Assembly (NCBI RefSeq): GCF_055900595.2
Contig: NZ_CM148325.1
DNA length: 64,000 bases
Reading direction: 5' to 3' (one strand)
This document shows, piece after piece, positions 61,345 to 61,589 of the stretch. The notes beneath the pieces are model-generated. The model had not been told where the DNA came from. It saw only the letters and a list, made by a program, of their open reading frames with translations, and did no database searches. Each line of letters opens with the position of its first letter. The first letter of the stretch is position 1. The translations under genes and the position numbers were made by a program.

Positions 61345-61357
61345 TTCTTGCGAGTTT

Positions 61358-61386
61358 CAGAAAAGGGGCCTGAGTGGCCCCTTTTT
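61358..61386 (+). terminator. rpsO terminator hairpin
   Basis: gaaaaggggcctgagtggcccctttttt hairpin plus T-run directly after rpsO. Confidence 0.75.
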
Positions 61387-61589
61387 TCAAACTGACGGCA
61401 GCAATTCACTGGAAACTAATGTATTGTTGCTATGAATGATCTTCCGTTGCAGAGGTTCGCGCGGCTAATGAGAGGCTTTACCCACATTGGGCTGGGTTAG
61501 GGTTGTCATTAGTCGCGAGGATGCGCAGAAGATCGGGTATTAACACCAGTGCCGTAAGGTGCTGTCTAAGAAAGAGAAAGGATATTACA

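Follow-up and report, generated by a model that had tools for sequence, protein, structure and literature searches.

The rpsO-pnp spacer of an Escherichia coli chromosome as a probable post-transcriptional control region read on both strands

The stretch of DNA analysed here (64,000 nt, hereafter the window) carries rpsO, the gene for ribosomal protein S15, followed on the same strand by pnp, which encodes PNPase, a major RNA-degrading enzyme, and the two are separated by a spacer of exactly 245 nt (61345..61589) that measures 246 nt in K-12. The segment 60950-61700 matched 5424 of 5426 complete E. coli genomes, with a best identity of 99.9%, and to judge from these matches the window is E. 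coli chromosome. The non-ATG pnp start that the original prediction had read from the sequence is also the one given by the RefSeq annotation. The spacer as a whole folded at -102.6 kcal/mol (z = -5.57), and none of 200 shuffles did equally well. Within it we found the long pnp leader stem that had been foreseen, as an imperfect hairpin of about 97 nt of the type cut by RNase III (the R hairpin), but its description as GC-rich was overstated, since GC makes up 54.6% of R (33 G, 20 C), as compared with 51.3% of the window and 47.3% of the spacer; the excess of G in R reflects G·U pairing. The coordinates of the features are collected in Table 1.

Two further observations concern the flanking genes. 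The rpsO 5′UTR and start gave a match to the S15 leader (RF00114, 61017-61131, plus strand, 117.6 bits), the known S15 autoregulatory pseudoknot region. A stop-free ORF of 740 aa (61566-63788, minus strand) covers all of pnp on the antisense side, in the codon-aligned frame; it meets no stop because pnp uses no TTA, CTA or TCA in its 711 codons, and we rejected it as a gene and regard it as a codon-bias shadow ORF.

Table 1. Positions of the features discussed in the text, in window coordinates.
Feature	Position	Strand	Basis or remark
rpsO CDS (ribosomal protein S15)	61075..61344	+	ORF list and RefSeq annotation of a 99.9% identical genome, equal boundaries
Conserved GCGAGTTTC, probable RNase E site starting rpsO mRNA decay	61350..61358	+	just upstream of terminator
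Bidirectional Rho-independent terminator: T1 of rpsO (+), T of SraG (-)	61361..61387	both	sequence, folds on both strands
pnp P2 promoter region and start	61392..61435	+	start site ~61432-61435
R hairpin of pnp leader, RNase III substrate	61438..61534	+	37 pairs, -47.6 kcal/mol, folds
Predicted RNase III cuts RIII1; RIII2	~61470-61474; ~61508-61512	+	published distances, predicted stem
GGA motif in R 3′ arm, candidate upstream CsrA site	61519..61521	+	sequence
HP2, 7-bp hairpin CAGUGCC-GUAA-GGUGCUG	61547..61564	+	between R and Shine-Dalgarno; folds
pnp Shine-Dalgarno AAGGA, also the overlapping CsrA site	61578..61582	+	sequence, Fontaine 2016 (PMC5029454)
pnp CDS, 711 codons, TTG start	61590..63725	+	ORF list, RefSeq annotation of K-12 and of a near-identical genome
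SraG promoter -10 box TAATAT	61587..61582	-	between pnp Shine-Dalgarno and TTG; 6 nt from start site
SraG primary transcript, 215 nt	61361..61575	-	MG1655 annotation and circular RT-PCR ends, via alignment
Rfam RF00082 SraG match, older 174-nt form	61360..61531	-	160.8 bits
K-12 difference: one G missing	61365		terminator G-run; yields perfect palindrome
K-12 difference: A, K-12 G	61391		between terminator and conserved P2 block
K-12 difference: T, K-12 A	61488		R apical loop
K-12 difference: G, K-12 A	61490		R apical loop
K-12 difference: G, K-12 A	61561		HP2; U-A pair becomes U·G
ArcZ sRNA	22400-22507	-	Rfam match
greA leader	44007-44128	+	Rfam match
rimP leader	54636-54736	+	Rfam match
Two tRNAs	50781-50864 and 54471-54544	+	Rfam matches

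The rpsO terminator hairpin expected in the spacer is present and, in the window allele, is a perfect palindrome, AAAAGGGGCC-TGAGT-GGCCCCTTTTTT. Six G-C pairs (GGGGCC at 61365-61370 with GGCCCC at 61376-61381) close the 5-nt loop TGAGT; on the plus strand the stem is flanked by A4 upstream and T6 downstream, and on the minus strand it is followed by T4, the 3′ end of SraG reading GGGGCC-ACUCA-GGCCCC-UUUU. Of the 82 loci in which a simple search located the terminator core, 69 show flanks rich in A on its upstream side and rich in T downstream. The block GCGAGTTTC showed 70-99% column identity across 102 Enterobacterales, and GAGTTTC was found in 55 of 103 loci. Regnier and Hajnsdorf (1991) reportedly located an RNase E cut 10 nt past the rpsO stop codon, a position that we take to be ~61354/61355 in the window. 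RNase E cutting upstream of T1 is also described by Fontaine 2016 (PMC5029454), who call the rpsO terminator bidirectional. When we scanned for consensus promoters and terminators, nothing was returned in the spacer, and the only hits were the rpsO P1 promoter-like site (TTGCGA-17-TAGAAT, 60938-60966) and four weak terminator-like sites elsewhere. The rpsO terminator was missed because the A/T extension of its stem absorbs the T-tract and leaves too few T residues; since T1, P2 and the SraG promoter were all missed, we read the silence of the scan in the spacer as a limit of the tool and not as absence.

On the opposite strand, the original prediction had named a small RNA of E. coli, SraG, whose ends it could not place, and had proposed an Rfam scan and RNA folding as checks. 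The SraG model RF00082 matched the minus strand from 61531 to 61360 along the full length of the model (positions 1-177 of 177; 160.8 bits, gathering score 50, E = 2.8e-30), between the end of rpsO and the start of pnp and antisense to both, and the folding returned the R hairpin. At E <= 1 no Rfam family gave a match on the spacer's plus strand, and no Rfam family for the pnp leader (a ‘PNPase leader’) exists. Homology to K-12 now places the ends of SraG. The MG1655 ncRNA sraG (b4449) is annotated at 3311183..3311398, 216 nt, and a primary transcript of 216 nt was established in K-12 by circular RT-PCR of its ends, starting at a T 42 nt farther upstream than the older 5′ end of Argaman (Fontaine 2016, PMC5029454). 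In the window this start is the T at 61575, whereas the older, shorter 5′ end maps at ~61533, about where the Rfam model begins; the model describes the older form of 174 nt alone and leaves out the 5′ 44 nt, which were indispensable for regulation in that study. Antisense to the pnp leader, SraG extends from a point just 3′ of the Shine-Dalgarno sequence back through P2 to the terminator. Since the window is identical to MG1655 over 61562-61610, the SraG promoter and start are unchanged, and by analogy with K-12 the RNA would be transcribed in the window's strain as well. Its fold had z = -4.95.

The same scan gave matches at gathering score to the ArcZ sRNA, the greA and rimP leaders and two tRNAs, as is to be expected in this region of the E. 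coli chromosome. It also matched naRNA4/CssrE (RF02564, 59435-59505; 69.9 bits on the plus and 36 bits on the minus strand), a REP-type palindromic element upstream of truB, and RNA-OUT (RF00240, 5231-5300, minus strand, 97.3 bits), which points to an IS10-type insertion sequence.

For the pnp mRNA, a second promoter, P2, lies just beyond the terminator. Its likely -10 box is TATTGT at 61422-61427, within the block ACTAATGTATTGTTGC (61415-61430), whose 80-99% column identity fits the -10 region of P2; the promoter scan of the spacer returned no -35/-10 consensus for it. In the Methods of Fontaine 2016 (PMC5029454) the pnp RNA made in vitro spans +1 (the P2 start) to +234, with its end at nt 79 of the ORF, which implies a leader of 155 nt and a P2 start at 61435. 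The RNase III cuts reported in that study at +39 and +77 from the P2 start, however, fit the 2-nt 3′ overhang on the predicted stem only with a start nearer 61432, this geometry requiring the cut positions to sum to 110 in our numbering, and both the P2 start and the cuts, which were taken from the Methods and the distances given there, carry an uncertainty of about +/-3 nt. An RNase III signal for pnp in RNA-seq data at MG1655 3311286 (PMC5371410) maps to window position 61472, within R. We infer from K-12 that R would be cleaved in the window's strain by RNase III at two staggered sites. The leader from P2 folded with z = -3.47.

Between R and the Shine-Dalgarno sequence there are 40 nt with almost no sequence conservation, and here a small hairpin, HP2, is predicted, which underlies the 5′ 42 nt of SraG. 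Since any alignment would have been fitted to the hairpin, alignment-based covariation was dropped for HP2 and alignment-free shuffle z-scores were used. The hairpin at this place had a mean z of -3.2 over 101 loci against mononucleotide shuffles, and z was below -2 in 15 of 19 representative sequences against dinucleotide shuffles. HP2 thus appears to be conserved in structure, not in sequence, across most Enterobacterales. We found no description of it in the accessible literature on the pnp leader; it may be, for example, a 5′ stabiliser of the processed mRNA or a loop-loop entry point for SraG. Of the two CsrA sites, the one over the Shine-Dalgarno sequence lies in columns of 70-90% identity across species. 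The candidate upstream site, GGA in the 3′ arm of R, would be exposed only once RNase III and PNPase have processed the RNA; GAGGATG is kept at at least 90% across Enterobacterales.

The comparative material was gathered with a degenerate pattern for pnp codons 8-17, which returned 120 loci in species-representative genomes, 102 of them Enterobacterales with rpsO directly upstream; spacer length was mostly 239-311 nt. All 19 representative Enterobacterales loci, with the same rpsO-pnp arrangement, gave an antisense Rfam SraG match (66.6-161.8 bits), and the spacer of Pseudidiomarina gave none. Two cores of R, about 20 nt in each arm (TTCGCGCGGCTAATGAGAG at 61456-61475 and TGTCATTAGTCGCGAGGATG at 61504-61523), are near-invariant across the order in about 100 sequences, and they contain the predicted RNase III cuts and the GGA at 61519-61521; the apical loop and the lower stem are variable. 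In the middle stem of R, 97.8% of pair cells were paired among 97 distinct sequences, against 30-46% when the partners were slid. Covariation was 0.171 versus 0.120, a level that 0 of 500 shuffles reached, and seven pairs had double changes. Because the variable upper and lower stems misalign in the MAFFT alignment, covariation is undercounted there, and we relied on folding of each sequence.

These results leave next to no room for the reading that both the Rfam match and the folds arose by chance in an unremarkable spacer. Nothing speaks for it except the empty consensus scans, and the score more than 100 bits above threshold, the failure of every shuffle to fold as well, the recurrence of the element in all representative loci and the near-invariant core and paired, covarying stem of R refute a chance origin. 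Hardly more probable is a start of pnp further upstream, at the ATG at 61521 (an older annotation of 734 aa) or at the TTG at 61503 (the mechanical ORF of 740 aa), which would make the leader partly coding. The frame is indeed open from 61503 with no stop before 61590 in the ORF list, and a revision of the start would fit the K-12 protein record, which stands at version 4. However, RefSeq puts the start at TTG 61590, and a TTG preceded by AAGGA occurs in 100 of 102 species (the pnp start in Enterobacterales being TTG in 100 and GTG in 2 of 102), in contrast to the 45 nt upstream, which show 10-40% identity and variable length; the stretch in question consists of the R 3′ arm and HP2, and a 30S toeprint has been obtained 15 nt from the pnp UUG (PMC5029454). 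Both upstream starts were rejected on the conservation of TTG and Shine-Dalgarno sequence, the RefSeq annotation and the toeprint.

Much closer to the evidence is the reading that the conserved ‘SraG’ is really an operator of the sense-strand pnp leader, the antisense RNA being weak, lineage-restricted and under little independent selection. It is a shift of emphasis and does not deny that SraG RNA exists in E. coli. Since a G·U pair on one strand is a C·A mismatch on the other, the two strands can be told apart, and across 102 species R had a mean folding energy of -47.0 kcal/mol on the pnp strand versus -30.6 kcal/mol on the SraG strand, with 5.4 versus 0.7 G·U pairs per hairpin; it was stabler on the pnp strand in 100 of them. 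Among the 23 consensus pairs, 97.8% were standard on the pnp strand and 79.8% on the SraG strand, and the strand-specific wobble cells numbered 412 G·U against 9 A·C. Five pairs carry conserved wobbles (for instance U·G in 92 and G·U in 93 of 97 distinct sequences). This asymmetry suggests that R is maintained for the pnp mRNA and that the SraG fold is its weaker mirror image, which agrees with the cutting of SraG by RNase III at mirror sites (PMC5029454). Moreover, only 31 of 103 loci keep the E. coli-type SraG -10 box in the homologous place, and inactivation of the SraG promoter raised pnp mRNA and protein by 1.3-fold, a small effect (PMC5029454). On the other hand, 66 of 103 loci have a -10-like hexamer (at least 4 of 6 matches, with A2 and T6) somewhere in the 14 nt that precede the start, and the A-tract upstream of the terminator in most species gives a U-tract on the minus strand. 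SraG has been detected by Northern blot and circular RT-PCR and the 216-nt RNA is abolished in K-12 by mutation of its -10 box; in vitro it prevents the 30S toeprint, its overexpression reduces pnp mRNA, and its 5′ 42 nt were essential for repression (PMC5029454). A trans target of SraG in Yersinia is also reported, at least as cited in that paper. On balance we consider the sense-operator reading a serious contender that falls somewhat short of even odds. The conserved G·U pairs, together with the near-invariant cores around the RNase III cuts and the GGA, led us to a fuller version, which we put forward only tentatively: that the Rfam ‘SraG’ element has been selected mainly as a sense-strand operator of the pnp leader, and that antisense SraG came later and is confined to some lineages. 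Separately from this, HP2 may be an uncharacterised functional part of the leader.

The allele carried by the window is rare. The spacer was at least 99% identical in 19 of 5425 complete E. coli genomes, and more than 5400 carry a K-12-like allele at 98.0%. The five spacer differences from K-12 all spare the stem cores, the promoter boxes and the cut sites, and over the 751-nt stretch compared all differences from K-12 lie within the spacer except one SNP in rpsO. That SNP, T at 61204 where K-12 and the best-matching genomes have G, changes codon 44 from GCA to TCA (S15 Ala44Ser) and is the sole difference from the compared best match over 60950-61700, the ten top matches listed being all at 99.9%; we take it for a private variant or else a sequencing error.

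Taken together, we hold with a probability of about 0.95 that the spacer represents E. coli's post-transcriptional control region between rpsO and pnp, with both strands being read. Both the observation and the interpretation of the original prediction were correct, and the system is already known and has been treated in depth in the literature. The sequence features, the homology to K-12, the folds and the conservation are shown by the present analysis itself; for cleavage, autoregulation, CsrA binding and the action of SraG we assume that the findings carry over from K-12, where RNase III, PNPase, CsrA at two sites (one over the Shine-Dalgarno sequence) and RNase E early in the coding region make PNPase self-limiting (PMC5029454). 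Under this assumption, transcripts from the rpsO promoter would stop at T1 or read through, and P2 would start pnp mRNA just downstream of T1. The pnp leader would fold into the R hairpin, both arms of which RNase III would cut, and PNPase would remove the short upstream (5′) strand of the cut duplex; this removal would open the leader to binding by CsrA and attack by RNase E, whereby PNPase would lower its own synthesis. HP2, the AAGGA and the weak TTG start would complete the leader. From its promoter between the pnp Shine-Dalgarno sequence and start, SraG would run antisense through the leader to the shared terminator. In K-12 it base-pairs with the leader as far as 3 nt from the Shine-Dalgarno sequence and generates a new RNase III site close to the pnp mRNA's 5′ end (PMC5029454), and pairing to within a few nucleotides of that sequence could likewise block the 30S subunit and add an RNase III site here, so that PNPase output would be modestly trimmed.

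The locus is a textbook case in which PNPase limits itself by way of RNase III, PNPase, CsrA, RNase E and an antisense RNA, and that picture is unchanged. Our small additions are the apparent selection of the structure on the mRNA strand, a SraG promoter that is not order-wide and a structurally conserved HP2. These comparative points could guide re-curation in Rfam, where the functional 5′ end is missing from the SraG family and no counterpart on the sense strand exists, and also experiments on the pnp leader.

Compared with known systems, the antisense RNA of the window is SraG/PsrO (RF00082; K-12 b4449) in its locus, strand and terminator, with identical promoter and start. It differs from the 216-nt K-12 RNA in its predicted length of 215 nt, with one C fewer beside the terminator U-tract, and in four base changes at SraG positions ~+15, +86, +88 and +185. 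RliD of Listeria and ref41 of Enterococcus occupy the same rpsO-pnpA interval antisense to pnp, as cited in Fontaine 2016 (PMC5029454), with no sequence similarity reported. The leader itself corresponds to the E. coli pnp leader with its RNase III-dependent autoregulation of PNPase, sharing identical R stems and cut-site sequence and the same P2 region, Shine-Dalgarno sequence and TTG, and it differs from K-12 in two apical-loop substitutions (61488 and 61490) and one in HP2 (61561). This autoregulation is said to have been worked out by Portier, Regnier, Jarrige and Carzaniga, and the CsrA layer by Park in 2015. Like the rnc leader, which is cut by RNase III, and the rne 5′UTR, which is sensed by RNase E, the pnp leader is a structured 5′UTR that serves as a sensor through which an RNase limits its own mRNA. 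Unlike them, and sharing neither sequence nor structural homology with them, it needs RNase III and then PNPase, and an antisense RNA is added to the system.
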